Positions 3,808 to 33,104 are shown, counted from the stretch's first letter. The stretch: DNA of 64,000 nucleotides from Pseudovirgaria hyperparasitica (GCA_010093815.1 ML996576.1); one strand, 5' to 3'. The notes: generated by a model not told the origin, from the letters alone. Program-made: numbers and translations.

Positions 3808-3880
3808 GATAATGAACTCCATTATCGAAAAAGGACGATGAACTCTATTATTAAAAGAGGATAATAAACCCTATTATTAC
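3808..3880 (+). repeat. ~26-bp degenerate tandem repeat (3 units) downstream of Gypsy A pol
   Basis: gataatgaactccattatcgaaaaag / gacgatgaactctattattaaaagag / gataataaaccctattattac; copy 2 (~20857-20903) has one unit fewer. Confidence 0.7.
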
Positions 3881-4111: not shown

Positions 4112-4214
4112 ATATACCCGGTATCTATTTATTTATAGATTCCGCTATATACCCGGTAGATATATTTATTCATAGATTTCCTATATACCTAGTATATATT
4201 TATTTATAGATTCG
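4112..4214 (+). repeat. ~35-bp degenerate tandem repeat (3 units) upstream of the Gypsy A extra ORF
   Basis: atatacccggta...tatttattyatagatt repeated three times; mirrored at ~20522-20623. Confidence 0.75.
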
Positions 4215-4434
4215 ATACGTATACGGGCCTATAGCTATTAGTAAGAATCATTTATAAAAATTACTATATACCCGGTATTCGAGGAGGTATAAAAAGAGAA
4301 CTTAAGATAGTATATAACTCTTCCCTCTTACACCTCTCTATACCTTCTTAATTAATAAAACCTCCTCCTCTACTTCCGCCTCGCTTAACTACCTCTCCTT
4401 AAAATATAACTCGCTAATAGAACCAATAATAATA

Positions 4435-7362: not shown

Positions 7363-7566
7363 GATTAGGCGCCTAAAAACCTACCTAATTATTAGTTAAG
7401 GGCTGCCCTTAACTAATAATCCGGGCTAAGGTTTACCCGCGCCGAGAGGTTTACTAGGGGCGCATTTTATTTATATTAAGGTCTTTCTTTTAGGCGTTCT
7501 TTACACGGTTTCTTACACGGTTACTATACTACTAAGGGTAGTAGTTCTATAGGCCGGGGAGGTATA

Positions 7567-7934
7567 TGTGGAAGGCCGCTCCTATAGCCCTATATGTATA
7601 TATCCCTGGCTCGATTATATGGCTTTATTATATATTTAAGGAGGGCGTTTTCCTTGGTTATTCTACTCGGCGCTTCCCCTATTACTAATATTCGACTATT
7701 TAACCTTTCCTTACGTTCATAGGCCTCTATAGGTATTAATTATTAGGCTTAGCTATTAAAGAATTAATTAAGAGTATTATATAGACCCGTCCTATTATAA
7801 AAGAGAACTAATAAGAAGTCGTACGTTCAAAGAGAACTTATAATACCTAGGAGAGATACTTGTGAGTTCGTCGCGACTACTATACTAGGAATACAGCCAT
7901 TTACAAAAGGGATATACGTAACGATGGCTTACCA
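7567..7934 (+). repeat. 3' LTR of Gypsy A copy 1
   Basis: Starts TGTGGAAGG right after the purine tract ggccggggaggtata; homologous to 16797-17168 and 27840-28211; the 3' terminus is imperfect (..cttacca versus ..ctcatcaca). Confidence 0.88.
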
Positions 7935-10900
7935 TACTATCGCCGAACTTTAGGAATATATCGCGAATTAGGCTTGAGAGATTTAAACCCTTAAAGAATA
8001 GGTAGAATACGCGAAACTCCTCGTAAAGAGACGAGAACTTAAGAAGTCTCTTAAAGAACTACGCCGAACGATAGTAGGTGGACGACTTTCTATACTAATT
8101 TAGGCGGAATTAGTTTACCTACTATTAGAGTTATGATAATCCACCGTATACCCGGCCGCTTCGTTACCGATTTACCCTACTTCTTCCCTAGATATACTAA
8201 AACCTAAAGATCTAACTATATTTATAGGGAAGAACTAAAAGGAGTAGAAAGACTAGAAGAGAGACTACGAAAAGTACTTCCTCGATAACCCTCTACTCTT
8301 TTCTACTAAAGTATAATATATTTCGTTCGGAGAACGATACCTAGACTTATAATTCCACGATTAATAGAATAGATAGAAGGAAGTATAGCTACTATCTACG
8401 ATAACCTAGAAATATTTAGCTATATTTATACTAAACACCCTTGGAACGGATAGAGAACGTGAAAGAAAGGCACTATCTAAGTTAAGAAGCGTGGCATAAC
8501 GACCGAACTAGACACCTACTTAACTACTATAATACCTCTAAAACCTATAGAATAATATCCCTATACTATAGGAAAATATTCGTATATTCTAGTTTCGCGA
8601 AGTACTACTTCCGTTAATCCGCGAAAGACTAGGAATAGTATTATTAAGTTTTAACTATCTACACGAATTAGAGGAGAAAGCTAATAAATACTACCGCATT
8701 CTTAAGGAACGCGGCTCTCTAGGTAAAACCGACGAACCCTATACGGGTTAGAAACGAGGTTAATCGAATACGTTTAATTAAGAGTAATCTTACCGCGATT
8801 AGCGCTAGAAGAGCGTAAATCGGGGTAGAAACGCGTTAAGAGGATACCAAAATAATTAAGGCGGTACTTCTTAACGCGGAAAAGGATAAGGCATAGGCTT
8901 AAATATAATATCTATTATAAAATAGTAGAATCATAGCGCACTTCGTTACTATAAGTATAGAGAAATAGAATATATTTCGCCTAACTATAAGAATCCGAAA
9001 AAAGAATAGGCTAGTACACGAGACCTAACCGCGTCCTTAGCTAAATTATATATACTTAGAAGGAGCCGTAGCGTCTTCCGGCGAGTAAAGACCTAATATT
9101 ACTAAAAGTATCGTTATCTATAGTAAATAGTAATAAAACTATATAGGCCCTCGTGGATACTAGTATAGAAGATAACTATATTTTATTAATTCTTATAAAG
9201 GAGTATAGATTATCGTATAATCTTAGTAAAGTTAGCCAAACTATCGTAGTTAATAGATATAAAGTTAGAACTTTAGGTAAAGCTATAATGAATTACGAAG
9301 TTCATGACTCGAAGATAATAAAATAGTAGATATCTAATAAATTTATTATAGCTAATATTAGCTAATAGAATATAATTCTAGGGATGCCTTAGCTTAGATA
9401 CCTAAACCCTATTCTTAATTTTTAGAAGGAGATATTAACGTTCTAACGATACCGTGGTAAATTATACTAGTAAGTTATAACTATTAGTAAGGAGGCATAG
9501 AACCTCACCGTACGGACCCGATTATTACTAATCTATCTTATATTCTTATTAATTATTAATAAAGATAAGGACGATAGTAATAATCGGGGCGAAGACACGC
9601 TACCCGACGTATATTCGTAGTATATAGATGTGTTTTTAGTAGGAGATACGTTACTTCTCCCTAATCACGGGCTATATAAGCTAAAGATCGAGCTCGAAGA
9701 GGGAGTAGACGTCTCTTATAGCCTACTTTACCTACTTTTAAGACTAGAACTTAAAGTTCTTTATAAATATATTAAAGAATACCTCGAAAGAGGCTAGATA
9801 CGTTATAGTATATTATTAGCTAGCGTATCTATTCTCTTCGTAAAGAAGAAAGACGGAAGTTTACATCTATATATCGACTATTAGGTACTAAATACGGTAA
9901 CTAAGAAGAATCGTTATCTATTACCGCTAGTTAGTAAATCTTTAGACTAATTAATAAAGATAAAGTACTTTATAAAGCTAGATTTATAAGATATATATTA
10001 CTAGCTTTAAATTCGTTATAGAGATAAGTAGAAAACCGCATTTCGGACTAGATATAGTTATTTTAAGTATACTATTATACTATTCGGGCTAATAAATACG
10101 CTAGGAGCGTTTTAAGGATATATTAATACTATACTTATAGGATTACTTAACGTGATTTATATAGTTTATCTCGATAATATACTAATTTACTCCGATAGTA
10201 TATAGAATTATAAAGAATACGTGAAATCGGTGCTAAATCGTCTAAGGTAGTATAAACTCTACGTAAAATTATCTAAATGTGAGTTTTACTAATAAGAAGT
10301 TGGGTTTCTCGGCTTTATTATAATATATAGCGGCCCAAAAATAGAGCCGGAGCGTGTAAAGACCATTATAGAATGGCTAGAACCTACTACTATACGTTAA
10401 ATTAGAATATTTATAGGTTTCGTAAACTATTATCATAAATTCATTATAGGCTTCTTACGAATTATGGCGCCGCTTAATAAACTTATAGAGAATGGCGGTA
10501 AAATCCCTATAGATAGGTAAGTATAGCGTAAAGCTAAGTCGGTTAAGATATAGTTAACGCCGGAAGCACGAGATACGTTCCGATCGTTAAAGAATTACTT
10601 TATAACTACGCCGATTCTTAGGTATTTTAATCCCGAGAAGTATATTTAGGTTAAAACTAATATGTTAGAATTCGTAATTACTAGAATTATTAGTTAACCG
10701 TATAAAGATATGAAAGATAAGGTATAATAGTACCCGGTCGCTTTCTTTTCCTATAAAATAGCGGATATAGAGACGCGTTATAATATATATAACTAGAAAC
10801 TACTTATAATTATTAAGAGTTTTAAGTAATAGCGATATTATTTAGAAGGCTCTATATATTAGATCGAATTATTATTAGATTACGCAAATCTACGTTACTT

Positions 10901-11882
10901 TATATTAACTAAGGTCCTTAATTACTAATAAGTATATTAGGCTAAGTAGATATTAATATTTAACTTTAAAATCTTATATAAAGCTAGAAGAGAGAATAAA
11001 GCTAATCCTCTATNNNNNNNNNNAAAGACTTAATTAAATCTACCTAGAATTCTAATATATTAGTAAAGAAAGTTATAAGTATAAAAGGAAGCGCTATAGA
11101 TCCGCCGTAGTTATTAAGGTAGAAACGATAATTAGACGCGATCTACTTCTAAGGCCGACTCTATATACTAGAAGACGGCTTACAAATTAATATTTTAAGG
11201 GAATAGCACGATTATATATTAGTAGAGTACTTTAGCGTTATAAGGACGGTTAATTTAATCTAAAGGATGTACGACTGGCCGGGTCTTTATAAATATATAA
11301 AAGACTATATAAAAACGTATAACGTTTACCAGTATACGAAAGTATATAGACACTTACTATATAGTAAATTAAGGCTATTACCTATACTAAAGGAGGTATA
11401 GAAGGAATTATTAATAGATTTTATTATAGATCTACCCCTAAGTAAGTATTCTAGGTATATTTATAATAGTTTACTTATAGTTCTAGATAGATTTATAAAG
11501 ATATTATACTATATCTCTATAAGGAAGACGATCTAAGTACCGGATCTTATAGATATACTACTCCGTGACGTAGTCCGGCTCTATAGTATACTAAATAATA
11601 TAGTTTCGGATAGAGGTCCGTAGATAACGTCTAAATTTTAGAAGGATTTCTACTATACGCTAGGAATTAAGTGGAAACTTAGTACTACGTTCCATCTATA
11701 AATAGATAGATAGACGGAGTAGTAGAATTAGATAGTCGAGGTGTATTTATATATATATTATAACTATAAGTAGAATAACTAGGTAAGGTTAGTCTATGTC
11801 GCGGAATTTGTGTATAATAATAGCCGATATACGTTAACCCACGTAAGTCCGTTCGAAGTAAACTTCGGTTAGAACTATAATA
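7935..11882 (+). mobile_element. Chromoviral Ty3/Gypsy family B, gag-protease-RT-RNase H-integrase (left segment), RIP-inactivated
   Basis: Gag zinc knuckle de-RIPs to CYKCGEMGHISPDC (~8947-8988); gag stop ~9009 after an A-rich run, with pol in the -1 frame; protease ALVDTG (~9147); RT VYLDDILIYS (~10164); RNase H; integrase running into SPFE at ~11847; continues at 28610. Confidence 0.92.
11014..11023. other. Assembly gap (10 N)
   Basis: Run of n within Gypsy B pol between RNase H and the integrase zinc finger; true gap size unknown. Confidence 0.99.
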
Positions 11883-14800
11883 ATAATAATATTAGTAAAC
11901 TAGGTAGAGTACCACTCTATAGGCGCATGCCTCCTCTAGTCTAAGCTACTATATAAGAAGAAACCTATGAATAGGAAAAACTCCCTTATATCCATGACTA
12001 CGCTCTATCTATCCTCTCGTTCTTTATATATATATAGCCCTAGGGGCTACCTATAGGCCTATAGCCTATATTATAATGGTTTACCCTTAGGCAGCACGTA
12101 TAGGTACGGAGATTATTAGTTAAGGGCTACCCTTAACTAATAATCGCGGTTCTCCCGGGGTTCTTCCGACGTATACCGGGGTTCTTCTAGTATATATTAG
12201 GCTTCTTCCGGTATATATACGCGGGTCTACTAGAACTAGGGGAGAGGAAGATATATAAGTATCTATCGGGCGACGTCCTTAGGGTACTTATTAAGCTATC
12301 GCGTGATGTTAGAGGTTCTTATTATATAGACGAGAGCTTATCTTAGAGTATAGAGGCTAGAGCACGTCGTGAGGTAGTGGCGTATTATACCTCTCCGGCC
12401 GTAGTCCTCGCACTAGGGAGATATATCTAGAATGCCTCTCTAGTAGAGGTAATATAGAAGACCTATAGCGCCTATTCGGGCTTAGAGGAGTATGGATACT
12501 TAGGCCTTCGTTAGCCCTTTATATATCTATTTACTCGGTTCCTTCTAAGGCCCTTAGATCTATTCTAGATACCTATTCTATTAGGAGGCCTACTAGGCTT
12601 TAAGTACCTCCCTCTATTTATCCTAGATCTATAACCGTATAACGCGGCTAAGCTCCTTAGGGCTCTATTAGCTCGGAACGGTATCCGGGTTATTTTGAAC
12701 CTCCTACGCGGTCTAGCTCGAGTCCGCCTCTATATAGTATTTATATTATACTCGAGTTTATTCTATAGTAGGGAGGGCCTAGTAATACGCGCGGATACGT
12801 GTGCGTAGTACGGCAAAGGTATATACCCTATCTCCTCTACGTTCTTATACTTATTATTTAGTAAAGTATATAAGTCTCTATATCTAGTAGAAGTCCTATA
12901 TACTTATTACGTTTATCTCGCGTCGGAGGAGCATTATATTAGTAGCTTTATATACGCCGGAGATAAGGCGGAGTATACGGTTTTATATAGACTTAAGCTT
13001 TACCCGCCAAGCTTATATAAGGGCTATATACTAGTACTCATGTCCGTATATAAAGGCTAGGCGTGCTAGGGAGATATATAGCTATCTCGCCTTATCCTAG
13101 GCTATTCCCTACGTAGATACCGTAATCCGGCGTATAGCGGTTTCTATCTAGAGGGCTCTAGAGACGGCGTGTACCACCTATAGTCCCTATTTTAGCTTAT
13201 TATTAATCATAACGCCGAGTGCTTATATACTCTATACTAGTAGTTCTATAAAGGCGTCGATTTAGGGGCGACGTGCCCCCTCTCTAGTAGCCTATCCTCT
13301 ATAGTAGTTAATAAAGTATATAAGCTAGTATTTTTTAGATACGAATTTTACTCCGTAGCGCTTTACCTACTAGACGTATTTCTCGTGGTCTCGTTCGAGT
13401 CGTGTACATGTTCTACTAGTACTACTATCGACCGTAAGGAGGTATGTATCGTCCGTATATCCGACTACCTCTATATATTTTATTCCCTAAAGGAGGTCTA
13501 CTATAAAGAAGAGGAAGAGAATCGGGGAGATGGTGCTCCCTTACGGGATGCCGCATGCCGTCTCCTTATATTCGCTTCGGTATCCGGGGATATATATTTA
13601 AGTAGTCCTTTACGCGAGAAAGGACTATATAAATCGTATAATCTACTTAGGTATTCGCCTTATCCGGAGGTTATAGATAAGTCTTATATGGTTTACCTTA
13701 TTAAACGCCTCTACTATATCTAGGGAGAGTAGCGTAACGACTCGTCCTTATTTCTATATAGTCTAGATAACCTCGAGGATGTGTTAAATAGCTATAATTA
13801 GGGAGCTTCCTACCTTCGCCTTCTGGTTTACTAGGAGAAGGCCGTGTACCTATACTACTATACTTATCTTCTTAGTAATCGTGGCTTCTAGTACCTTACT
13901 AAGATAGGAGAGGAGGGCGATCGGCCTCTATCCCTTCGGCGTGTTTAGGCTCTTCCCTAGTTTTAGGAGTATAACTATATATATAGTTTAGAAGCTCTAT
14001 AGGTAGTATCCTATACGGGCGCACGCTCGGAATATATGGCCTATAATCGGTAAGGTTGCCTATATAGTTCTCTTAAGGCATCGATTCGGAATTCTATCTA
14101 GCCTAGGCGCTTTATCGTTCGGGAGTGTCTTAATAGCGCCGAGTATATTATCATCCGTAATTTCCCTAGGGATACTTACGGCTTCCGGGTATTCCGTGCC
14201 GTTAATATCTAATAGGTCTACGGGTTCTAGGAGAGGGAATATAACCTCTTATAGAATCTCTATTTTCTCGAGGCTCGTGGAGTACGTCTTTTCTTAATAT
14301 ATAAGGGGGGGTATAAGTAGTATAGGTGTCGGGGAGGCGGTGCTTTTGGCCCATTTTACTATATACCATAGTCTAGTAGTGTTACGTGTGTATCTATCCG
14401 TGACTATACACTACTATTTACGTCGCTCGTTATAGAGAACCTTATCTCGTTATCTTCTCGCCTCTCTCCATTCATCCTACGCTTTAGGTATACGGTTATA
14501 GTATACACGTGTGTATAATCTCCGGACTTCTCGCCTATACTCTCGTACTTAAGGTATACTTTTCGGGTCTAGGGGTCTATATATTTAGTACGGCACGTGT
14601 TTATCTCTTACTCCCTAGTATACCTATAGGAGTATATTCACGGCCTGGTCGATGGCCGGGCCATTAGATACGTCGACTATAGACGGGTCTAGGATCGTCG
14701 ATTCTAGGTCCTTTAGATACTTTTCCTAGTTAGTATTCTTCTATAGCTATCGCCCTCGTTAGTCTTAAGGGGTAGATATATCTATTACGGTCTCTATATA

Positions 14801-16796: not shown

Positions 16797-17168
16797 TGTG
16801 ATAAGCTATCGCCACGTATGTCCCTTTTTATAAATGGCTATATTCTTAGTATAGTAGTCGCGACGAACTTATAAGTATCTCTCCTAGGTATTATGAGTTC
16901 TCTTTGAACGCACGACTTCTTATTAGTTCTCTTTTACGATAGGACGGGTCTATATAATACTCTTAATTAATTTATTAATAGCTAAGCCTAATAATTAATA
17001 CCCATAGAGGCCCATGAACGTAAGGAAAGGTCGAATTATCGAATATTAGTGATGGGGGAAGCGTATGGAGTAGAATGACCGAGGAAAACGCCCTCCTTAA
17101 ATATATAATAAGCCATATAATCGAGCTAGGGATATATATATATAGGGCTGTAGGAACGGCCTTCTATA
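16797..17168 (-). repeat. 3' LTR of Gypsy A copy 2
   Basis: Direct repeat of 27840-28211, adjacent to the PPT. Confidence 0.93.
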
Positions 17169-17372
17169 TATACCTCCCCGGCCTATAGAACTACTACCCT
17201 TAGTAGTATAGTAACCGTATAAGAAACCGTGTGAAGAACGCCTAAAAGAAAGACCTTAATATAAATAAAATACGCCCCTAGTAAACCCCTCGGCGCGGGT
17301 AAACCTTAGCCCGGATTATTAGTTAAGGGTAGCCCTTAACTAATAATTAGGCAGGTTTTTAGGCGCCTAATC

Positions 17373-20300
17373 TTAGTACTCGAGGTCACGAGCCAGCTTC
17401 TAAAGAATCGTATCACTTATCTTAGAGAGGTTAGATTCCTCCTTATCGGATAGTTCGTTAGGCCTCTCCTATCTATAGAAGTTCTCTTTAACGTTATCTA
17501 GGCCCGCGTCGGGCTCGAATTTCTTAAAATTAATTAGCCGCTTAGCGGCGCGCGCCTCGTTAAATTCCTTCTAGAACGACCTATCCCTATAGACTAGCCT
17601 TTCCTACCTTACTATTTTCTTAAAGGTCTCTACGAATACCCTCGAGCCCTCCTTAAACCAGGCGTCTACCTTAGCTTTAAGTTATTAAGGACTTGCGTTA
17701 AGCCACGTAGCTACCTCTTCTTTTACCTTCTAGCTATTCTATCTTTTACGGCCGACTAATACGTTACTAATAGCGTTAAAACTCGGGAGTTAAACTACGG
17801 CTAGGAAGGTAAAAGGAATCGCGCTATATTTATTAGAAAATCCCGACGGAGACGTAGGTCCTAGAGTTAAATTCCTGTGAGCTGCTCCGAGTTATTCCTA
17901 TATACCTATTTTAGGTACTTCTATTATTATATGATTAGGGCTAATCGCGATATACCATAGAAGTATTATACGTCTTCCACCCTTTACGGGACCCTAGGCG
18001 CCGTATATTATTAGTGGGCTAGAGATATATACTTTAAGGGACTAGTAGGGGACCGGGACGAAGGGACTAAATCGTTTCCTATCGTCCGTATTATAGATCT
18101 TATCGTTAATAGCCGTAATTATACCATTTCGATTAACCCCCTCGCGGAGCTTAGCCTTCAACTACCATTCATTTAAGAACTTATAGGAGCGGGGAACGAT
18201 TATAGTATAGTCGTCACTTCGTTCGTCGTCGAGACTAATACTCCCCTAGATTATATTAAACCTATATCTATTACTAGAATCGAGGATTCGATTAATGGCG
18301 TTATCGAGATACTTAAAACCCGTCTTATCGCCCCTATCCTAGAACTTCGCATAGTACGGGTACGAGATTAGATAGTAGTTAAGATCAGGCCGAAGAGCGA
18401 TATAGGTAAGCTAGTAAAGTAGGCATTACCTAATAAACTATTAGATATAGGAGTGGTATATAGTTCGTAGCCAGCCGTAGTTCGATTTCTTATTAAACAT
18501 ACGCTAGTGGTACTTATATATATTAAATTCATCCCTTATAAGTTCTAGGATACTCTTATTAAGTATAGAGGTCGTCTTTTTAAGTGGCTCGAAGAGCCCT
18601 TTAATATTAATACTTCCGGTACGTTCCTACTCGTCGAAGAGTTATCTACCTATTCTACCGTCCTCCTTCTAAATTATAAATACGATACTAGTAAGGATAG
18701 TTTTAATATTAATAACTTGCTTCGGGGTCTCTAGGGCCTAGTAATGATAGATATCTAATGCCTCTATCGGATAAGGTGGCCGCGCGTACTTCGTGAACTA
18801 GGTATAGCGGTCCTTATAAACTTTAAGGGCCCCTACGTTATCTCTAAACTTATATACTATTTTAAGTCTCGCTACTAGGTTTAAGTGGAACACGCTAACG
18901 AGTATATTATTCTTTCTAGCCACGTCTTGGTAATGCTTATAGTAGACTTTATACGGAATAGCCATATTACCTATCTACGCTTTCTAGCGCACTAGTAGGG
19001 CCATTCCCTTAATGCTCGTGAAATTCTTCTTTAATAATGTAGCTACCTTAAAAGTCTTCGTCACTAAAGGCGCGTATCAATACTTCTTAGGCTCGTCCTC
19101 TTCCTTGACTAATACTATCGTCTTAGGGTACGAACTAAGAATAACCAGGGATTGCCGTATAGGCGCCCCTAGTAATTACTAAGGGCCGGTAGATAAGGTA
19201 CGCCCATAAGTGGGTTTTATCGGCATAGCCGTAATAGGTACTAAAGACGTTCTTATATGGCCCGGTAAGGGACGTTTACTAGTAGTAGTAGGAGGAATAC
19301 TTACTTCGAACGGACGACTAGCTTCGAAGAGACGACATACTACTAAACTAGGAGATATACTTCGTAGAGGGGACTTTACCGTAGGCGTTACCTACGCTAG
19401 TTTTAGCGACGGTAAGGTCTAAGGCGGAGGCGATGCACTTATCTCTTTGATTTATAGGTAGTATTCGACGGGCCTATAAACTATTCTACTTATCCATAAC
19501 TATTAACTAGCGGGGATAATAAGTCCCGTCTTATTATAGAACGTTAGTTTATTTTATTAGCTAGGGTAGTTCGAGAGTTACTAGAGAGATAGGCCGTCCT
19601 CGTTACTATCGCTAGCTAGAGCGGCATCGATATTAGAGCTCTAAAGATATGCCTTAATTTCTCTTCTCTTCTATCCCTGGCCGATTCGGGACTATAGGGA
19701 TACGTTTAACTAGTTCCTTGCTCTCGCCCATGTTCGCACTCGTGAGAGCGCTACTAGCTTTTCTATAAAGTTCTATGTTTACTAGAGCTATCCGAGGGCG
19801 GATTAGAGTAACTAGCTATTATTATTAGGGAGGTCTTTTCGCTAGTTTTATAGGATTACATTTTAAGCTTTTAGGATGCGGGAGTTAGTGTCTCTTCCAC
19901 GACGAATTATCTCGTGGACTTCTTTCGGAATAGAGGAGTTAATCTTTGCCTTACTATACCCTATTACGGCTCCTGCTTCCTAGAAGAGGTCGACTATACT
20001 ACTTAAGAGCTATTCTACGAGGCTGGTAATGTAAAGGAGATTATTAAACGTATCTAGAATGTAGTCCTATCGCTCTTACGGGTCCTAGATAGCGATAATT
20101 TAGTTGATGGTAGACTTATTTATTTCCGTAGCTTCTATAGCCTATCCGTATAGAGTAGTAGATGGCCTTAATACCACGATAGTCGTCGATGGCCCTACTT
20201 TAGCACTTATGACTCTTAACTAGGACCGCGTCTATCTTATTAGTACTTAATAATCTTATAACTCTTTATAGGTAGGCGTTTTCTTCTTCAGCGGGGCTAT
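17373..20300 (-). pseudogene. Gypsy A extra ORF with 2OG-Fe(II) dioxygenase domain, copy 2
   Basis: Reverse complement of 4435-7362; independently retains codons such as tac ccg tac tat (YPYY) and tac ggc gcc ((H)GA). Confidence 0.75.
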
Positions 20301-20955
20301 TATTATTATTAGTTCTATTGGTAAGTTATATTCTAAGGAGAGGTAGTTTAAGCGAGGCGGAAGTAGAGGAGGAGGTTTTATTAATTAAGGAGGTATAGAG
20401 AGGTATAAGAGGGAAGAGTTATATACTATCTTAAGTTCTCTTTTTATGCCTCCTCGAATGCCGGGTATATAGTGATTTTTATAAATAATCCTTACTAACG
20501 GCCGTAGGCCCGTATACGTGTCGAATCTATAAATAAATATATACTAGGTATATAGGAAATCTATGAATAAATATGTCTACTAGGTATATAGCGGAATCTA
20601 TGAATAAATAGATACCGGGTATATTCTTATCCCCATAAGACTTCCTATAAGTATCTTTTTCTCTTATACCTCCTCCTTCTTTTCTTCCTTATTAGTTCCT
20701 AACGGGGCCCGTTCTATAGTAACGAAATAGGCCTTTAATGGGTAGGCTTCGATTACACGACCGGTTTCAATGTGTAGTAGGTAGAATTTCGCGTAAACGC
20801 CATTATGTCTTCTTTCGAGCATTACTTACTTTAATAATAGGTTTTATTATTTTATAGTAATGATAGGGTTTATCATCCTCTTTCGATGATAGAGTTCATC
20901 GTTATAAGACTACTTTTATAAGCATCCCTTCCCTTCTTAAAAAAACTTCTATCCC

Positions 20956-23900
20956 CTAGAAGGAGATATCGATTCTAGGGAAACGTAAATATTCCTCTCT
21001 ATTAAAGTCTTACGGAGTAGGAATTACTACTTCTACCCGGGTTCGTGTGGCGTCGTCGAGGTATTCCGTAAGTTATTTATAATAGTTTTCCTTATTGCTA
21101 CTCTCCTTATTTTCCTTAGTAATTCTTCTAATTAGTGGTCGTAAGGGCTCGTCGTGACTCTTATTACTCGTATTTCTTATAAAATATTTCTTTAACCTAT
21201 GGCTAGGAAACGTCTCTCTAAGTATGGCTCTATTAAGCTCCGTAAGCTTATAAGTATAATTAAACACGGACTAGATTCTATATGGCCCCCTCTAATGCTA
21301 CCTTAGCTTTCGCCCTATATCCTTCTATTACTACGAGTCGTATAGGAGGATAATCGTGTCGACTAGTAACGACTCTTAACGAAGGTAATAGTCGTTATTC
21401 TATACCTCTCTTAATTCCTTACGCGTTCGTATCGCGTGGGTATAGGCCTCCTTAAGATCCTCGGATCTTCTCTTAAGTTATCTAGCTCGAAGAGCGAGTA
21501 AGTCGGACGTTAATCATACCTTATTCTAAGGGAGTATTTAGAGCGACTCGAATTCGACTTCGATAGATATGATTAGTTTATGGCTAAGTATAAGGTATAC
21601 GGTACTATACCCTATACTAGTACGTATCGTTATTCTATCTACCTAGATAACCGCATGGAGGTGGTCGGGCCAGTTCTTAAATCCGCTATTAGTTATCTTC
21701 GCGAGAGCATTAGCGAGTAGTATAAAACTTCTCTCGATAATCCTATTTACTCGGGGATTATACATAGACGTAACCTTCTAATAAATTCTATAGAGTCGGA
21801 GGAGCTCCTCTATAGCACCTATATTTTCTCTACTACTATTATAGGTGATTTTAGGAATAATTCCGTATCTATAGATCACGTTCTTAAAGAGGAACTTTAC
21901 GACGACTATGGACGTGGCCGCTATACATGCCTCCGCCTTAGTCTATCCGCTTAGCTATTCTCGTATAGATACTACTTTACTATACCCTATAGAAGGTGGT
22001 AGTGTCGTTACGTCTAAGTGCATTCTTTGCTAAAGAATAGGCGTTATGACGTAGTGGAGCCCTTTATTAAGACCTCTAAGGAGCTTACTTCGTTATTAAT
22101 ATTCGTTATAGGTTTTCACGTGCTATCGCACGTCTCTACGTATACCTACCTACTAATACTTATCCTTAATCCTTCCGAGGGTCCCTTCGCTACCTCTATA
22201 ATCTATCTTATTATAAGTGGTAGTAATTATACGCGCCCTAGTATTCGGATCCTTAATTACTCGTGTATATTAGCGATATCTATCTCCTCTCCGCTAGAGT
22301 ATTCGGTTACACACGAGGAACTTTAGGCAGTCGGTTATAAAGGCCTTATACGCTCGGTTGGTTAGGTTGGTTAGCCTCTTAAGTATAGTAAGATACTTCG
22401 TAATCCTCTACTATTTATCGCTATATTTATCTATTAAGGGAGACTTAATAGCGGTATAGTCGAGTATCCCTATTATGTAATCTCTCCCGCTAATAGGCTT
22501 AATTAACAATATCTCTAGCACGTCTATATATAGAGCTATATCCACGAACTCGTCTAGGTTAAAGGTAGGGACGTCTGGTGGTTCTTCTCCTTCGTGCATC
22601 CGTGAGATACCATCGGCGACTACGTTACGCTTCCTAGGTATATACCTAACTATAAAGTTCTATAGCTAAATCCACGCGAGCCACCTAGTAACGAGCGCCC
22701 CTAGTAAGTTAGTTATAGTACAGTTAATTTAAGCGACTAGAGTATTCGCGTCTATTTCTATAATAAAGTATATACTATAGAGGTATTACTAGAACTTCTA
22801 TAACGCGTGGAGGAGGGCTCGGTACTCTAGTTTCACGGTATCGTAGTTTCTCTTAGCTTTTAACTATATTCCTCTATTATACTACGATAGCTAACGTTTA
22901 TAATTCTCGTTCTCCTATATTAACGTAGCCCCCTACCTAACATTACTAGAGTCTACTACTAGGATTATATCTCCTATACCTGTCCCGTACCGTAACGTTA
23001 TTAGTGCGGGAGTAGTAGTTAGAGCTATCTTTAGCGCGTCCATCAAGGTCTACTTCTTAGCTATCTACTACTAGGCCGATTTATTCTTTAATAGTATAAA
23101 TAGTAGTAATACGATAATAGCGTACCCGGGGATCTATATCCGGAAATATATATAAACGCTAAGGAAGGCTCGCATATTCGTCGTGTTTTTATAGGGTTTC
23201 TAGTCCCTAATAGTAGTAACCTTTTTATTACTCGGTCGCCTCCCTTTAATACCGTAGACGTATCCCATAACGTTAGCGGCTTTAATATACTACTAAGTCT
23301 TCTTACTACTTAGGGCGTATCTAGCGCGCTCTATATCCGCGAGAATCTTATCCACGTTAATTAAATGTTCTAGGATATACCTATAAATTCTAGGTAGGGC
23401 CTCCTTAGAGTTATATTTCGTCGTAGGTCCTTTGATGCCTAAGTTATCTAGGAATAGTAGAGCCCTCTCTAGGATATGTTCTTATATAATAGTTAATATA
23501 ATTCTAACGAACTAAGCTACTAAATTAGTGGCCCCTTAAGGTAATATTATCCCGTATAGTAATCCTAGGGGCGTTATAAACCCCGTTAAGTCTCGGTAAT
23601 GCTCTACTAATGGAATCTAATTATATCCTAAGAAGAAGTCGGTAAACGTTAAGACGGCTATCCCTATAAAGTGCTCCGAGAATTCTTTATATAAGGGCGG
23701 CGTGGCCGCATCACGAATAGTAACTCGGTTGATTTCTATCGCCGAATTGATTAACCTATAATCTCGTTCCTTATTAGCTTCCTTCTTCTTTTCCACGAGA
23801 AAATAGACGTTTTAATAAGGACTACTATAGGGCTCGAGCCTTCTACTATTAAGACGCTCTTTTAGGATCGTGAGTACCTTTCTATAAAGGGCTCTAGAAA

Positions 23901-26900
23901 TATTAAAGTTCTTAGCCTACTATATCTTATATTCTACCGTTCGGATCTCCTACGGAGGTACCACCTCTTCATTAAATTTACTAAGGTATAAGAATTCCTA
24001 TACTAGTGCTTCCTCGCGATATAATAAGATTATATATAGTAACTTAAGTTCCGCGGGACGTAGCTCTATTCTAATCTTTAGCTAACTTATATATAGAGGT
24101 GTTAGACGTGTTTCTAGCGGGATAGTTACCCTTTAAGGCTCTATTAGCCTATTAAACGCGTTAAGGCCTAGGTAGACGGCTAGAAGAAGTACCTACCGTG
24201 CGATTACTCGTTCACGCTAGTCTAGATACCCTAATAGATTCCTAGGGACCTTTTAGTAGGCTTCGGAGTCATCCACGGGGTGTACTTTAACTCCCTTTCT
24301 TTTATATATAGTAGCTATACTAAATCCCTTTAATACCCCGGATGAATACCGTCTTTAGAGGCCGGTAGAGCCTACTATAAGCTATTCTATTATCGTGCCT
24401 TATTTATATACGAAGGTAGCGTACCTTACTACCGTAACTAGGGCGGCTAAGTTATCTTTTCTCGATAACTAAGTAATATTTTCAGGCCGGATTTTCTCGG
24501 AAAGCAACTCTATATAACTCATTTCTATATCCGTATAAAAATATATCCTATCCCCTTCGTTAGTGGGTTCACCGGACTCTATTTAGTATGAATTATTAGT
24601 TAAGGGTAGCCCTTAACTAATAATCCGGCTTAACTCCGGCTTCTAGCGATATACTCTACTATATAGTTAGTCTCTAGCCACGGAGTTACCCTCCTTCTCT
24701 AAGACTAGAATATACTCGTCCGGACTGGTTTTAAAGGTTATACGTTCTTATCTATATATAGAGTAGACTATTAAGAGTACTTACCCGGAGGCTAACCTCT
24801 ACACCGTAAGTAAGGCCTACCTAGCATATAGCTCCCCTAGGATAAGATTATAATTGAGTTCGCTATATACGAATATCGAAGTAGCCGTAATAATTTAACC
24901 TATATAGATAGGGTATTACTATACTATTCCTACGAATGGAGTGCTATACTAAGTAGCGCTAACTAAACTTAAGTTCTTTATATATAGTAGAAGCGAAGAT
25001 ATTACTAGCCTAAGACGCCTCGTAGTATCTAGTCGAATACTATTTACCTGCACGCCACTATCGAATAGTACTATACTAGTCGCCCTTTTAGGACTAACTT
25101 CCACGGGGTACCTCGGACACTCGGCTACTAGCCTTACTATCTCTTCCTTAAGCTAATTAATATCTTATTACGTAATAGCCGTCCCCGTGGTATAGAGGGG
25201 TGCTAATATATTAAGTTTATTTATCTTAGGAGCTATGGTATAGTCGTTTCTTTCTTTCTTCTCGGCTCTCTTCTCTTAAGCCTCGCGGACCTCTCTAGCT
25301 ATAAAGTCGGGGGCGCCCTTCTTGAACACCGCACGACGTAAGTTACCATTAAGGCTTAATAGTTCACTAATAGTAATATTCATGGTTGTCCCTAGAACGC
25401 GCACTAGCCATGCTTCGCTAGCTTCTATACTTAGCCGCTATCCCTTATATAGATAGTTATTAAGCTTAACGCCTTGGATACGTACCTTTTAACTAGGATT
25501 TAGGCTATCCCCTTTATCTATCTTATTCTTAGGCGCCGTTAGCTCTTATTTAGACGTTCCCTAGTCACTACTCTTCTCGCCGTCCTCCTATTCCTTAATA
25601 ATCCTTATATACTACCCTTCACGCATTCCGCGGAGATAGACGATCTTTCTTTCCTTAGTATAATTAGGTGTACTCTTCGTAATCCCCCTTCTAGATATTA
25701 TAAGTATAGCGGGCTCTTCTAGGGCTATCTCCTCGCGGATATATCTGTTACTAGCCACGTCGAAGCGTTCATGGAATTCTATATATCTATCTTTCTTACT
25801 CTCGGGCGACGTGACTTCTTCTTCTAAATTACTATCTACTAAGGCCTAGTAGAGACCCTTCGTAGGTTTTGCACTAATACTATATACTAGCACTCCCTAT
25901 GAAGCGTTAATATTTACTATAGACGTAGAAACCTTTACTCCCCCTCCGTACTAGCTTAGGCCATTTTAAACCGTTACTACGTAGTTCCGGATAGCTTATA
26001 GAGTAGCTTATGGCCCTACCGAGAAGGGTAGTAATAGGATTTCTTCTCCGTTCGCCCCGAAACGCCCTCGGAATACTCGTACCCTATTAATATTTAGTAA
26101 TCCATCTCTAATATATTCTACCATCTCCGGACATCTATATATTAGGTAATCTCCTCCGTACGTGATGCATACAATCGGTCTTCGAGGCCTATCCTAGGCT
26201 ATAACGCCTCCTTAGAAGTCTCGGGTAGAGACGTATTCTCTATTCTATATATAATTCTATGGATAAACTTACGTTAGTTCTATAGGCATGCCTCGTACTT
26301 AGGGGTGTATTAAAAGATTTAGCCTTCGCGCCTACTAGTTAATAATAGCCGAAAGTAGCTTAGGTTCGTACTTCTTAAGGGATAAGAATAAGGGATTAGA
26401 GATAAAGTAGGACTTTATCTTAATTAACGTGAGGTCTAGTTTACTAAATCTCTCTACTATCTCGTTAAACTTATCCGATCCTAGCGTAATATATACTTCG
26501 ACTAGAGAGGGGTGGCTAAATTTATTAGTTCTTCTTTCTTTATGTGACTACTCTTCTAAGCTAGTCTTCTTACTCCCTATCTTTGATTTATAGTATATGG
26601 CTATGGCTAGCTCTTATGCGGCTAAGTACTTATTAATACGAGCTAGTTCCTTAAGTACTCTAGCCTTTCGTGATACGAAGTCATAGATAATTACCTAGTC
26701 GTAACTATGTGCTTCTATCGTGAGTTAACATTTCTCTATAGCCCGAGCCTTAAGACTATTAGGTAGCCCTTCTAGGAAGAGCTCTATTCGCGAATACGAG
26801 CTTAGGCTTCCTTTAGCCATAAGTTTCTCCGTAATAACATGATACCGGGAGTAATATATAGGGAGAGAGTAGGATAGGTCTACTTTAACCATTTCCACGT

Positions 26901-27549
26901 ATTTTCGGATAAAGTGGATAGTGCCTTCCTCGAGGGCGGAGTTAAATAGAGAGAATTCCTTTAATAATTCTTCACGTAGTATAGCCTACTACTATTTCTA
27001 AAACCTATCTATTCCTTTAATAGTAGGACGGAGATAGTCCTCGTAGTATAACGGTAGGGAGGTTATCTTCTTATTAGGCGGAACTTTATAGTTTATATAT
27101 ATGTCCTCGTACTTCCGAAGGAAGGCTATAATGTTTATTCCTTTAAAGCGCTCGGGGGCTAGGGTAGGTAGAGATACTATTCTTCCTTATCGCGTAAATG
27201 CTACGAAGAAGTTAAGCATCTCTCTACGAGTTACTAGGTCGTTATTTTAAGCTCCTATCGCACTATTACTAGTAGTAGATATGCTAGTGGAGACGCTAGG
27301 GGTAAGGTTATTAGTTAAGGGATTACCTTAACTAAAGGTTAGCCTAATACGTCTACCTATAACACCTATCATCCCTTCTCTATGTTGATTAATCCCTTTA
27401 TAAGGTGAACTATTACTATCGTCTTCATCGATATAAGGTTCACGGTATCCTACTTATATTATTATCTTCGTATAAGGCGTTCCTAAAGTAGTATACTCGT
27501 GTAGCCGTGTTTATGAATAATAGCTATAGTAGTACTAAATAGGTTATAT
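20956..27549 (-). pseudogene. Gypsy A single gag-pol ORF (~2,200 codons)
   Basis: All checked motifs share one frame: gag ERFKG.N..AFLRKYED (~27105-27153), knuckle CITCGGDHL..RC (~26130-26169), protease LFDSG (~25054-25068), RT, RNase H, integrase. No chromodomain recognised. Ends approximate. Confidence 0.87.
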
Positions 27550-27810
27550 TTGTCGTTTTTGAACTCTTCTTTACTACTTCATCTGGCCCTATTTTATATC
27601 CTATTCCCCTAAGACATTTTCGAGTCGTGCTATTACCCATGTTAGCATACGCATGCTTTTTACGGCTACTTTTAAGAGGCTAGCCCCTAGCAACTCTAGA
27701 CTCCCTGTTTTCTAGACTCGTGGCTTCGATCTAGTAAGTCTAGACTACCTTATTAGGCACGCCATATACTTCCTCTAAGCTAGTTTCGGAGTCCTAATCT
27801 CCCCCTGTAA

Positions 27811-27835
27811 GTTCGTAGTCCGGGTACGACCTCTA
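27811..27835 (-). promoter_or_regulatory. Primer-binding site of Gypsy A, complementary to a tRNA-Gln-like 3' end
   Basis: 4 nt inside the 5' LTR the minus strand reads T(A/G)GAGGTCGTACCCGGA; the + strand gttcg..tccgggtacgacctc(t/c)a resembles the T-arm/acceptor 3' end of fungal tRNA-Gln plus CCA (from memory, not searched). Confidence 0.65.
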
Positions 27836-27839
27836 AAAT

Positions 27840-28211
27840 TATAATGAGCTATCGCCACGTATATCCCTTTTTATAAATAGCTATATTCTTAGTATAGTAG
27901 TCGCGACGAACTCACAAGTATCTCTTCTAGGTATTATGAGTTCTCTTTAAACGCACGACTTCTTATTAGTTCTCTTTTACGATAGGACAGGTCTATATAA
28001 TACTCTCAATCAATTCATTAATAGCTAAGCCTAATAATCAATACCTATAGAGGCCCATGAACGTAAGGAAAGGTTGAATTATCGAATATTAGTGATGGGG
28101 GAAGCGTGTGGAGCAGAATGACCGAGGAAAACGCCCTCCTTAAATATATAATGAGCCATGTAATCGAGCTAGGGACACATACATGTAGGGCTGTAGGAAC
28201 GGCCTTCTACA
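27840..28211 (-). repeat. 5' LTR of Gypsy A copy 2
   Basis: Direct repeat of 16797-17168; starts TGTAGAAGG on the minus strand; followed by the PBS. Confidence 0.93.
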
Positions 28212-28215: not shown

Positions 28216-28609
28216 GTATATAGTTACCCTCGGTAATATCGCTATATAGCCTTTTCTATTATACCGGTAGGGGTATATCCGGTATATACCGGGGTATATC
28301 GGTGCCTAAGGCCGCCATATTTATTAGTTAAGGGCTACCCTTAACTAATAAAAGGGGGTCGGCGTATTGGCGTTCTAGTAGCGTGGTCCGTGTCTCTATC
28401 TCCGTGAGGATTTTAAGAGGGTATATATATATCTTTATACGGCGATAACGTCTTGGTTTCGACGCTATACGTATATGCGTATAGTAGTAGTTGGTATACT
28501 CGGTATACTCTATCGATTAAGGTATGTATCTCGCTGTATTACCCCGAATGGACCAAGTTAGCCTCTTAGGGATCCTTATTCCTAATATTTTTAATATCTC
28601 TATAGAGAT
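28216..28609 (-). mobile_element. LINE 5' segment (5' UTR and ORF1 start)
   Basis: Lies between the Gypsy A TSD and the second copy of the 19-bp LINE TSD; contains the ORF1 ATG at 28318. Confidence 0.85.
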
Positions 28610-29668
28610 TTCGGTTAGAACTATAATACATAGTTCTTAGAGACTTAGTTTAAAGTAGAACGACCTAATATTAAAGTAATAGAAATTACTATAGAACTAT
28701 TCTAAACGTAAAGAAGCGTTATAAAGTTACTATAAGATACTATGAATTATAGTAAATCGCACTATAATAAGGGTAGAAAACCTATGATCTTTAATGTTAG
28801 GGATAAAGTTTTACTAAATAGTAAGAATATTCGTAGTATTAGGCTAAAGAAGAAGCTTAACTATATAATAATAGATCTATATAAGATTACTCGTGTAATT
28901 AATAACTAGGCGTACGAGTTATAACTCCCTCCTATATTAAAGATATATAATATATTCTATATTACGCTTCTCGAGCTATTTTATACCTTATTATTACCGG
29001 ATTATTCTAAATAGATACTATATAAAGTAGTTACGTAAGAAGGTATAGATATCTATAAAGTTAAGTAGATACTTAGCTAGTAACGCGCCAAAGATAGTAC
29101 GTGACTATATAAAATTCGTTAGAAAGAATATAATCCTAATAAAGATACTTAGGAACCTATAATAAACATTAGTAAAGTAGCGATATTAGTATATAAGTAG
29201 CGATTAGTAAAGGAAGCCGCGGAATCGTAGAGAATTATACTAAAGTACAGCGATTCGACGTTTTTTAGTATAGTTTAGCGCCGAGAACGGCTGTCTAAAA
29301 GGAAGAAGGTAAAAGAGATATAGATCTTTAAAACATTCTAAGGAATTAAGGAACTTCCTTAGAAAGTTCAAACTTAGAACTTTAAAAATTTAACTAAAAA
29401 AGAGACTTAGAAAAATAATTTACTAAGAGAAATAGATATCGAAAATCGGTATAGATCGGTATAGATTACTAAAGAGATTAAAGAAGTTATTATTAAAGAA
29501 AGATAAAATTAAGAAAGCTAAAAGAAAATATAAAGATCTATATAGATCTATATAAACTCGCACTAATCTATCTAGAAGAAGTAAGATCGCTTTAAAATTA
29601 AAACCGAAAAACCAAAAACGCTAGATAAAAGAGATATATTAGTACTAATTAGTATAGATCTAAACTAA

Positions 29669-30650
29669 TTAAGTCGGAGTAGGAGTAGAAGTACTAATTA
29701 CCGCGATAGTTATATCTAATTCCTTCCGCTAGTTCTTATTTAGCATAGTATAGAGCTTTATAATATAAGTCTCTAGCCTTTCGTTCTAACGCTATAAATT
29801 CTATATAACGCGTCTTATAGCTATAAACTCCTCTATAGAAACCTATAGAGCGGCGGGACCCGGGATAGAGAGGGACGGACCGGCGCGGGTATACTAAGAA
29901 TTATATAAATCAGCGAAAAGATTTAACGATTAGTATAGAACTATATACCTTTAGTATAGAAACTTCTAGATTAGAGCTATCTTCTCTAAATTTACGGCTC
30001 TTTAGTATATACGAGGAAGGAACCTTAGCCTTTTTACTAGAACCTTTTCTAGGAATTCTAATATCGCTGGTATATAGAAAGAAGTCCGAAGTGGTAGAGA
30101 TTTTAGTACTATTATAGAGATTAATATATATTAGTAAGAATCTATAACGATTTAAGAAAAACGATATTACCTAGTAATCGCGGTAATAATAGCTATAGTA
30201 GATTCCGATAAATCCTTACGGATCTTATTAGAATCGTACTCCTAGATATAACTCTTACCTTAGATATATAGCTTATAGAAAGCCTTCTCTAAGGCGTTAC
30301 GATCGGTAGTACTACACTTCTTATTAGTAGGGATTACTAGAGGCCTAGTAGTAATCTATACTAATATAAGTAAATCTACGTAAAGTTCTTCGAACTTACT
30401 TAAATATCTATAAGTAATAACGCTTCTTAGTTATATAAGTACTATATATTATAGATTTAGTACTACCGTAAGTAATATATAACGGAAAGCGATAACCATA
30501 ATAATATATAGCTAGATTATTAGAGCCCGGCCTAGGTCGGGGTAGATTAATAGCTTTCGATATATCGGTAACGTATATAAGATAGGGATTATTCGAAGGC
30601 GCCTATTTCCGCGCTAATTACTTTAGAGTATTAAGATTTCAGGAAACTAT
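29669..30650 (-). pseudogene. Antisense, intron-containing accessory gene inside Gypsy B (Cys-rich N-terminus, coiled-coil C-terminus)
   Basis: Introns 29894-29948 (GTATAT..GCTGAT..TAG) and 30109-30170 (GTAATA..ACTAAT..TAG) whose removal restores one frame; probable third intron ~30356-30407; last exon de-RIPs to MEEF..MRRVVQNLQRQNERLE. Confidence 0.6.
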
Positions 30651-31134
30651 ATTAAGATTATTATTAATTTATATAGATTATTATAAATTATATTATTACT
30701 AGCTAAGGACGGTACGAAAATTAGTAAATTACGTAAATCATACTAAATTATAGTAAATCTATATAAATCTATATCTATAAGGATCGGGTGATATACCTAA
30801 TAATCTAAAAAACTCTATAAAGAGTTAAGAAGTTTTTTAAAGAAAGGAATATTTCTAAGAAAAGATTTTAATATAGGTAGTACCCGGGCTTATCTAATTA
30901 TATTACGTGATACGCTAGGCCTAATTAGATAATCTTACCTATATAAGAAGTTAAGATAGATAAAATCTAGTTAGTTAGGAAAACGCTTATATAAATCTTA
31001 GATTAGTAAATATTAGTAAGTATCTAAGACGAAGCGTAGAGAACGACTAAGGTCTTATGAGACTTAGAATAGGGATATAGAGATAGATAATAATCTAGGT
31101 CGCTAAGGGTAGCTTCCTAGAGGGAAGGGATAAT

Positions 31135-31362
31135 TATTAGAACTTAGCCTTAGATAGGACCCGACCTATATATACCTTAGCTAATAGAGTTAGGAGGTAA
31201 CGTAAAGGGCGGTAAATAGTCACATGCTAGATAGATCGGCGTCCCTTTATATATATACTCTTAGATTTCTACCGAAAGAGTTCGGTAGTAATTCGTTCTA
31301 TAATAGAATACACTCTATTATTCTATCTAACTATACTACTATCTAATAACCCTATTCTTACA
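31135..31362 (+). repeat. Probable 3' LTR of Gypsy B
   Basis: Begins tattagaac (RIPed TGT..) directly after the PPT; candidate end attcttaca; partner LTR is outside the window, so the end is tentative. Confidence 0.6.
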
Positions 31363-32795
31363 CTAGGCCTAGTCGCGTTATTTAGCCCTATCGCTAAAAT
31401 ATTAGAGAAGAAATTTAGTGAACGTGTCCTAGTTATAGGTATCCTTAGAATATTTAATTCGGTATACTATCTAACGTTCTAAAGGCGTCGGGTTAAGGTA
31501 GTTCTAGGCGAATCTAATTTTATTACTATCGTTCGTGAATAGATAGAAGAATCAGCTATATTAGTAAGTCTATATATAGAAACTCTTTCTACTTTTACTA
31601 TTAAAGTAAGGTAGTTTCTTAGGTTAGAGTAATTAGGATAGTAGTAGACTAGGATAGATTATTTTAGTTAGTATAGGTCTATATAAATATAGATTAGTTA
31701 TTACTAGAACTAAAGCGCGTAATATAGCTTTAAGTCTTATAGTACGTCCTTAAGCTTCGTCGAGTTCGTATAGTTATTACTTAAGTTAAATCTATTATTA
31801 CCTCTCTTTATATAGTCTAGTATATATATTATTATAAGGTATAGTTAATATTAGATAATTCTAATAGATTAACTCGTTAATATTAATAAGATCTAGCCTT
31901 ATATTAAGGTTAGATCTAGTATAGTTCGAACTAGACTAAGATAGAGTATAATAGACTCTATCCTTGTATTCTATAATATCTTCTATAGTTATATAGAATA
32001 TTATACGAGTTATTAGTATAATAGTCTATAAGATATAGTTATTAGTAGGGGTAGTTATAGATAGACTATTCTCCTCGTTTAGATTAGGAGAAGGTCTACT
32101 ATAAGAGGCGGTACCATGAGTATTATAATAAGTAGTTAGAGCTATTTCTATAAACTACCGTCGTGCTATATAAAGAGAAATTAAAATATAAGGATTATAG
32201 ACGTAGGATAGTAGTCTAATAGATTATAGGAGGATTCGGGAATATATTTAAAAGGGTAGTCTACTCTTCTAATAAGGTTAATTCCTAAAGAGTAGGAATT
32301 AAGTATATACGGCCTACTTATATAGTAGTCTTACTTATTCTAGCTAGCTTACCCTAGGTCTACCTATTACGGACCGTACTAGACTATAGTATTCTAGTTA
32401 AGTCTATTCTAGTGTTAGCCCTAATAATATTCCTCCTTATATATTCTAGATCCTTCTCTTAATTAATAATAGGAATCTTCTAGACCTCTAGATATACATA
32501 TATATTCTATAGCTCTAGTAGTTTCCTTAGAATAGAATAGAGTAGAGTAGAACTCTATAGAACTTATAGATTCTATAGTAGAATCTAATAGAACTCTATA
32601 GAAGTTCATGTTTTCTAAAGACCTCTAGAAGTTTCTAGAGGGTTCTAGAAACTTCTATAAGAGTATAGAGTATTTATATATATAAGTAGATAATATTAGT
32701 AATATTAATTACTAATATTAAGCTATTCCTAATAAGGAAATACCTTATAGAAACTTATTAGATATAGTAGAGGTTAAGTTTATAGTTATAAGGTC
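31363..32795. mobile_element. Heavily RIPed repeat of unassigned class
   Basis: RIP composition continues; clustered short ttctatagaa/ttctagaa palindromic motifs at 32530-32660; no recognisable RT or transposase motif. Confidence 0.5.
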
Positions 32796-33104
32796 AATAA
32801 GGGGCCAAAAACTCAACAACATGTGCGTCTAAATTAGTCTGCTGAGTGGTGCAACGATTCACGGTGGCACTCGATACGTTGTGGAATGACCCCAAAGATC
32901 ATGCTTGTTGATGGCTGTGGTAAGCGGGACATATGAGTTGACGAACATGTGGAGTGTGTGCGTGAGGCATTGGCCCCAGGATCTGGGTTATATATATTGT
33001 GATCGGATGCATATATACTTATAGCATTCGCAGTCGTGCGAACCATCTTACTTATCCTCTCACTATGGTGCAACCCTAGGTCCTTCGTCAAATCATCAAC
33101 ATCC

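Follow-up and report, generated by a model that had tools for sequence, protein, structure and literature searches.

The segment between positions 29,669 and 30,650 of the 64,000-nucleotide stretch of Pseudovirgaria hyperparasitica DNA analysed here (the window) is probably what RIP has left of a genuine accessory gene, belonging to a chromoviral Ty3/Gypsy family whose intact relatives encode an orphan protein of about 265 amino acids. The gene would occupy the interval from pol to the PPT, run tail to tail with pol on the other strand, and consist of four exons separated by three short spliceosomal introns. We show here the anatomy of the window and an intact gene in the metagenome locus L001, together with a statistical link from one to the other, and it is on these that the reading is built.

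Organization of the host retrotransposon

The first 33,000 bases of the window are AT-rich, with a GC content of 0.29-0.42, while the GC profile of the remainder lies at about 0.5. Self-BLAST reveals nested LTR elements, in which an insertion of an inner family splits an outer element that has a GC content of ~0.30 and is mutated more heavily than the inner family. When the pol of the outer element was scanned with Pfam, stop codons being read as X, matches to RT, RNase H and integrase were found in Ty3/Gypsy order on the plus strand, interrupted near 12.1 kb by the nested insertion. The outer element is a RIP-degraded, probably chromoviral Ty3/Gypsy element on the plus strand. The features of the two families are as follows.

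1-7941 against 24710-16792: inner LTR family, inverted partial copy, 91.6% match (self-BLAST)
7944..12100, plus strand: outer chromoviral element, 5' part with gag-pol, heavily RIPed (Pfam, GC, self-BLAST)
9840-10322, plus strand: RVT_1 (RT), E 1.5e-18 (Pfam)
10557-10913, plus strand: RT_RNaseH_2 (RNase H), E 4.4e-13 (Pfam)
11180-11341, plus strand: Integrase_H2C2, E 1.1e-7 (Pfam)
11468-11689, plus strand: rve, weak, E 0.0083 (Pfam)
16801-17166 and 27844-28209: 366-bp LTRs of the inner family, 94% alike (self-BLAST)
28750..29240, plus strand: 3' end of pol beyond the insertion (the tblastn match to L001 pol picks up again at about 28750)
28802-28978, plus strand: SH3_Tf2-1 (integrase), E 3e-8 (Pfam)
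29054-29179, plus strand: Chromo, weak match, E 0.021, 15.2 bits, below the 25.1 cut-off
31120-31129, plus strand: PPT-like purine run GAGGGAAGGG (sequence reading)
31137..33000, plus strand: presumed 3' LTR with the rest of the RIPed DNA, as far as the rise in GC near 33 kb

The weak Chromo score in the window is probably a consequence of RIP damage; PF00385 is present in the relatives, and in L001 it is matched with an E of 2.6e-13. From the weak chromodomain match to the PPT-like run the distance is ~1.9 kb, which agrees with the ~1.8 kb between the end of pol and the PPT that had been claimed in an earlier, sequence-only reading of this DNA. A contig from sequencing run X4 departs from the window upstream of 31137 and is compatible with an LTR edge at 31137; no matching 5' LTR was found within the 64-kb window.

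Several further observations concern the inner family and its surroundings. The inner family (1-7941; inverted, 16792-28209) has a GC content of ~0.40, its LTR stands about 4 kb away from the RNase H/integrase part, and in its first copy plus-strand frame 1 is largely open from ~5700 to 7440, resembling a sense-strand extra ORF; this open frame has no Pfam match at E up to 0.001. A motif of 30-50 nt recurs at 88-118, 7368-7419, 12113-12152, 17316-17367, 24593-24665 and 28301-28360 and is partly palindromic (28320-28352). One direct pair of it (12113-12152 and 28321-28360, 90%) flanks the insertion by which the outer pol is split, and the motif may belong to the ends of the inserted family. Positions 12101-16800, which lie after the broken outer pol and before the first inner-family LTR, have a GC content of ~0.41, with no Pfam match on the plus strand and no repeat partner within the window by self-BLAST.

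The antisense gene model in the window

On the minus strand, excision of three intron-like segments leaves four exons in a single frame that ends in a TAA at 29671-29669. In the order of the model, the features are listed below, all on the minus strand.

30651..31119, minus strand: spacer from gene start to PPT, about 470 nt, presumed from its position to hold the antisense promoter and 5' UTR
30650-30648, minus strand: possible start ATA (would be a RIP-changed ATG)
30400..30650, minus strand: exon A, Tyr-rich N-terminal part (possibly former Cys), 4 in-frame stops
30345..30399, minus strand: intron 1, 55 nt, GTAAGT..TAG, phase 2
30171..30344, minus strand: exon B, 2 in-frame stops
30109..30170, minus strand: intron 2, 62 nt, GTAATA..TACTAAT..TAG, phase 2
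29949..30108, minus strand: exon C, no in-frame stops, Ser/Lys-rich
29894..29948, minus strand: intron 3, 55 nt, GTATAT..CTGAT..TAG, phase 0
29672..29893, minus strand: exon D, 74 codons, 5 in-frame TAG, helical C-terminal part
29669..29671, minus strand: stop codon TAA of the antisense model (minus-strand reading)

Two canonical introns with branch sites had been described in the sequence-only reading. Both segments are present, at 55 and 62 nt, and their removal joins the exons in frame, but intron 1 (30399-30345) has no CTRAY branch motif, the donor GTAATA of intron 2 is non-canonical, and the number of introns is not above chance. In the RIPed DNA of the window, each strand carries 4-9 loose intron-like motifs in every ~4.5 kb (about 1-2 per kb), and because they are so frequent, three such segments in 1 kb are unremarkable taken alone. 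The probable third intron with a mutated donor, which the same reading had proposed, was recovered at 29948-29894, where GTATAT is the RIP form of GTATGT and the frame is kept.

The frame of the model contains 11 stops in 267 codons (4.1%), ten of them TAG or TAA and one TGA, against stop densities of 8.4% and 11.8% in the other two frames. The true pol frames of the outer element, at 6.2% and 7.4%, also lie above the model frame. The 11 in-frame stops, together with an ATA in place of the start codon and changes to the splice donors, leave this copy unable to make protein: it is a dead, RIP-killed fossil. The sequence of the window by itself cannot decide whether a gene was once present.

An intact gene in a relative

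Alignment of 14 chromoviral polyproteins (A1) was used to retrieve 68 metagenome loci, among which L001 is the best match to the integrase/chromodomain end of the window element (E 4e-20) and the second best to its RT (40.8% vs 41.2% for L002). L001 is un-RIPed, 7696 nt long and has a GC content of 0.49. Between pol and the PPT it carries three minus-strand open frames in different phases, and with its four exons joined by script these give one open frame of 266 amino acids interrupted by three canonical introns.

Ending at 5681: L001 gag, then pol, with Chromo domain (E 2.6e-13)
5902-6844, minus strand: L001 antisense gene, after the pol stop (5681) and before the PPT
6844-6551, minus strand: exon 1 (script-joined)
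Intron 1, 44 nt: GTAGGT..ACTGAC..TAG, phase 0
6506-6343, minus strand: exon 2 (script-joined)
Intron 2, 47 nt: GTATGT..ACTGAC..CAG
6295-6154, minus strand: exon 3 (script-joined)
Intron 3, 51 nt: GTACGT..TACTAAT..TAG, phase 0
6102-5905, minus strand: exon 4 (script-joined)
7580-7590: L001 PPT

The GC content of this frame at codon positions 1, 2 and 3 is 0.58, 0.44 and 0.58, resembling that of gag and pol, and its codon counts correlate with those of pol at 0.52 in frame, compared with 0.05 and -0.03 off frame. Since the frame is open and has coding-type GC and codon usage, the L001 antisense frame is taken as a real gene. No more than a few hundred bases separate its stop from the end of pol, as in the window model, and its start is separated from the PPT by a spacer of 736 nt in the same position as the ~470 nt of the window. 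The antisense, intron-bearing gene between pol and PPT that had been postulated from the window is supported by L001, the closest un-RIPed relative found, with the same architecture and an open frame.

Probable homology between the window model and the intact gene

The spliced model of the window was fixed before L001 was examined. For the comparison a custom RIP-aware score was used, which averages BLOSUM62 odds over the possible pre-RIP codons, allowing T to derive from C and A from G, with greater likelihood within TpA. A first version that took the maximum over ancestors was dropped, as its shuffle means of 133-273 were far too high, and averaged log-odds were used instead. The window model reaches a local score of 61.4 against the L001 protein and 35.3 against the reversed target. 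A score of 61.4 was attained by 9 of 2000 shuffled targets and by a single one of 1525 decoy spliced models, which had the exon geometry of the window model and were set elsewhere in RIPed DNA; within the outer element none of 327 decoys attained it.

The alignment spans exon A to exon C and places K*APSNNPYLIY of the window opposite KYAETNNPCVKC of L001, so that K-x-A-x-x-N-N-P-Y-x-x-Y in the former faces K-x-A-x-x-N-N-P-C-x-x-C in the latter. A Y-x2-Y-x6-Y run of the window lies opposite C-x2-C-x5-C of L001, and a VIP motif follows intron 1 in both. Intron 2 falls at the identical aligned residue and in the same phase in the two genes. Intron 3 has phase 0 in both, its positions being about 4 codons apart by extrapolation of the alignment, and the positions of intron 1 differ by 2.7 codons and by phase (2 in the window, 0 in L001). 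Exons B to D of the window measure 174, 160 and 222 nt, compared with 164, 142 and 198 nt for exons 2 to 4 of L001.

The signal is unevenly distributed and depends on how RIP is modelled. Only the pair formed by exon A and exon 1 is individually significant (z 4.2), the pairs B-2, C-3 and D-4 giving z values of 0.4, 1.2 and -0.9. Plain BLOSUM62 gives a score of 31, which 133 of 300 shuffles equal or exceed (shuffle mean 30.4-30.8); such silence of the plain matrix is expected if RIP has changed Cys, Gln, Trp and many other codons. The RIP-aware result is parameter-dependent, the number of shuffles reaching the score falling from 18 to 5, 1 and 0 of 300 as the assumed RIP rate rises. When the 33 kb of RIPed DNA were scanned unspliced in six frames, the exon scores of 44.4 and 44.3 rank about 14th to 15th among 1092 windows, and the top score of 50.6 falls outside the antisense exons. 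Taking the alignment together with the identical place, orientation and exon number and the similar exon sizes, we judge it likely that the window gene and the L001 gene are homologous.

Distribution within the family and beyond

Sequencing run X1 contributes 10,621 contigs over 28800-31300, which cover 30 of 30 bins and differ almost exclusively by transitions. Run X3, which bears another species label (organism B), yields pieces of the post-pol region at about 90-98% identity.

29119-29318: run X3 contig match
29449-29558: run X3 contig match
30603-31192: run X3 contig match

The coverage by X1 and the pieces from X3 lead to the conclusion that the post-pol region is a regular part of a high-copy, RIP-mutated family. 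The region is not confined to the copy in the window: the X1 contigs fill every bin. The segment is evenly covered by these contigs and recurs in a second lineage (L001 and P0123). Among the runs listed for 29241-31130 none is of RNA. The element family seems to be common to the two labelled species.

Chromoviral polyproteins matching the RT/RNase H part of pol number in the thousands, and identity is about 45% in the best of them. Neither antisense frame of the window has a Pfam match at E up to 10. The frame with exons A and C returned no matches in a word-indexed search, and the frame with exons B and D none by phmmer against 1.84 billion representatives. With tblastn the window frames gave a best E of 1.3 against the 68 loci, with no pattern. 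Among these loci a gene of the L001 type is found in none of the other 67, and in a survey of 12 loci in which 1.2 kb or more follow pol such an antisense frame occurs in L001 only. The sole other match to the L001 gene, obtained by word search with its exon 1, is P0123, a near-identical copy present as an unspliced read-through frame on an 813-nt contig, so that the conservation of the gene is based on two lineages only.

When viral contigs were scanned with L001 exon 1, a candidate (L069) was rejected, its match being the seeded word itself with 12 of 30 identities. Compared with the L001 frame, P0123 differs at 8 of 45 residues upstream of the ATG (L001 6845-6979, minus strand) and at none of 179 after it; by eye, all eight differences fit G-to-A or C-to-T, a local burst of transitions beside an unchanged gene. 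An extra gene of another kind is seen in L013, where a sense open frame of 932 codons (5379-8174, plus strand) lies after pol and before the LTR.

Features of the predicted protein

The product of the gene would have a Cys-rich N-terminal part, probably metal-binding, followed by basic stretches and by C-terminal helices that self-associate. In the L001 protein, exon 1 holds six Cys with the spacing C-x2-C-x14-C-x22-C-x2-C-x5-C, exons 2 and 3 contain basic stretches, and the last exon is helical, its helical part lying about 100 residues from the Cys cluster. Modelled as a homodimer, the last exon scores 0.39 against 0.02 for the best control, with a partner pLDDT of 74-75 and runs that share at least 90% of their contacts. 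The mark used for homodimers was attained by 21 of 30 proteins solved as pairs of one kind of chain and by none of 23 solved as single chains, and the model supports self-association of the last exon. The combination of a Cys-rich N-terminal part with a self-associating C-terminal helix, anticipated from the window, is thus partly upheld in L001 by its six exon 1 Cys and its predicted last-exon pair. Structural searches with exon 1 were unproductive: the best value in the ESM Atlas was 0.77, under any useful mark, and AlphaFold2 without an alignment gave an unusable pLDDT of 42.8. A PDB sequence search gave just short matches to artificial RecA concatemers, which were taken as spurious.

Alternative explanations

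The segment could instead be a RIP-degraded non-coding spacer, in which introns, open stretches and likeness to L001 have all arisen by chance from AT/TA-rich DNA and a permissive score. The abundance of intron-like motifs, at 4-9 per ~4.5 kb per strand, is what such a spacer would offer, as are the lack of signal with the standard matrix, the lack of a database homologue, the equal six-frame scores elsewhere and the three of four exon pairs that are not significant. It sits poorly with a model fixed in advance whose score is matched by only one decoy in 1525 and nine shuffles in 2000, with the clean gene of the nearest relative in the same architecture, orientation and place, with intron 2 at the same aligned residue and phase, and with stops that are rarer in the model frame than in real pol frames; we regard a chance origin as unlikely. 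An antisense unit that acts as RNA, either by giving dsRNA and small RNAs or by damping sense expression, with the L001 frame being secondary, would agree with PMC8365987, where Gypsy elements are given as major sources of both sense and antisense small RNAs in Botrytis, and with the finding of no protein homologues past L001 and P0123. Against it stand the coding-type codon-position GC and pol-like codon usage of the L001 frame, the three introns whose removal restores one frame of 266 amino acids, and the protein-level nature of the signal common to window and L001, and an RNA role of this kind appears very unlikely.

If the gene is real, its product might still be a Gal4-type Zn2Cys6 factor with coiled-coil dimerisation, as the sequence-only reading had suggested on the ground that the Tyr codons at ~30412-30508, if taken for former Cys, have a spacing close to that of Gal4. 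The Gal4 Zn2Cys6 consensus spacing is C-x2-C-x6-C-x5-12-C-x2-C-x6-8-C, and in proteins of this type the Cys cluster is followed by a basic linker and a short coiled coil. Six Cys and a self-associating C-terminal part are indeed found in L001, but its Cys spacing is unlike that of Gal4, no Gal4-like basic linker or short coiled coil follows its Cys cluster, and only the last three of the proposed Cys (C-x2-C-x5/6-C) have L001 counterparts. In Pfam, PF00172 (Zn_clus) included, nothing matched the four L001 exons or either window frame at E up to 10. In the absence of a Zn_clus match and with such a spacing, membership of the Zn2Cys6 family fails. In the window itself, Tyr makes up 12 of the first 78 residues of exon A, and four Y-x2-Y pairs are present where ~1.7 are expected by hand count; because Tyr is abundant and these pairs are near expectation, the Cys reading is not derivable from the window. 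That the gene encodes a Gal4-type factor seems to us scarcely credible.

Proposed function and significance

For the accessory gene as we reconstruct it, expression would start from an internal promoter in the ~470-nt spacer beside the PPT, and the resulting antisense mRNA would be spliced three times. In the sense genomic RNA the introns would be kept, because the splice signals are there reverse-complemented, and, following established retroelement biology, the unspliced introns would be copied by reverse transcription into every new insertion. L001 retains all three introns, in agreement with this logic of antisense survival. The product may then enter the nucleus, bind metal, pair by its C-terminal helices and regulate the nucleic acid or chromatin of the element.

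Few extra genes have been described in LTR retrotransposons, and a function is known for none of them; of fungal ones, only brtn was found published in the literature searched. If the present reading is true, the gene would be a second fungal antisense gene, and its occurrence in two divergent chromovirus lineages would point to long maintenance rather than accidental capture, a view that the three retained introns would support. The window copy, being a RIP-killed fossil, is itself of small practical meaning, and the intact L001 copy specifies a protein that can be expressed and tested. The importance of the gene would grow if it were widespread and functional.

Comparison with known antisense genes

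The original paper on brtn is reportedly that of Zhao et al. (2011, Virology 417:248). In the parts of the literature available, brtn is described as an antisense extra gene of Boty-like Gypsy elements in Botrytis cinerea and Sclerotinia (PMC7264820, PMC8365987, PMC4227169). According to these partial accounts, it resembles the gene described here in belonging to fungal chromodomain Ty3/Gypsy elements, in its place after pol and ahead of the 3' LTR, in running antisense to gag-pol, and in having no assigned function. The likeness is one of place and orientation, drawn from such descriptions and not from sequence, the word search with L001 exon 1 having given only P0123. The literature search found no intron-bearing antisense gene in fungal chromoviruses besides brtn, and supplements such as Figure S1 of PMC8365987 may hold more.

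Antisense ORFs in the same place and orientation as the window and L001 gene, between pol and the 3' LTR, are reported for the plant Ty3/Gypsy elements Grande, RIRE2, Retand (TRP28) and PvRetro13 in the passages available from PMC7264820 and PMC11963269. The same passages place these ORFs in most family copies and propose for them a nuclear or DNA-binding regulatory role, as yet unproven (PMC7264820, PMC11963269). So far as these excerpts go, the plant elements differ in being mostly non-chromoviral and in the far greater distance from pol to the LTR (2.9-6.6 kb in Retand); TRP28 or other Pfam domains are present in their proteins, whereas none was found in the window or L001 gene. Unlike the plant ORFs as there described, the window and L001 gene is split by three spliceosomal introns.

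Gal4-type Zn2Cys6 factors (PF00172) are likewise fungal and share a Cys-rich N-terminal part and a dimerising helical element with the L001 protein; they differ in that their profile matches neither L001 nor the window and that the L001 Cys spacing misfits.

The genes of HBZ and APH-2 lie at the 3' end of a retroelement on its minus strand and are expressed from the 3' side; the proteins act as nuclear dimerising regulators, and HBZ is spliced. They are the antisense proteins of the deltaretroviruses HTLV-1 and HTLV-2, respectively, as given in the available portion of PMC11963269. With the gene described here they have in common this minus-strand position and, on the reading proposed, expression from the 3' side and a nuclear, dimerising product. 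HBZ differs in being a bZIP protein of animal hosts with no sequence relation, whereas the L001 protein combines a Cys-rich part with a helical part modelled as a hairpin pair, in a fungal host. It is conceivable, though we hold it doubtful, that ascomycete chromoviruses conserve a regulatory gene of this HBZ-like kind, antisense and with three introns, whose product would be an orphan nuclear metal-binding dimer, unrelated to brtn or to any Pfam family, that controls transcription or silencing from the 3' end.

In its layout the gene matches the antisense extra genes already described from the region that separates pol from the 3' LTR. The window gene at 29669-30650 falls between the chromodomain (to 29179) and the PPT (31120), and its frame runs opposite to gag-pol, being open in L001 and degraded but alignable in the window.
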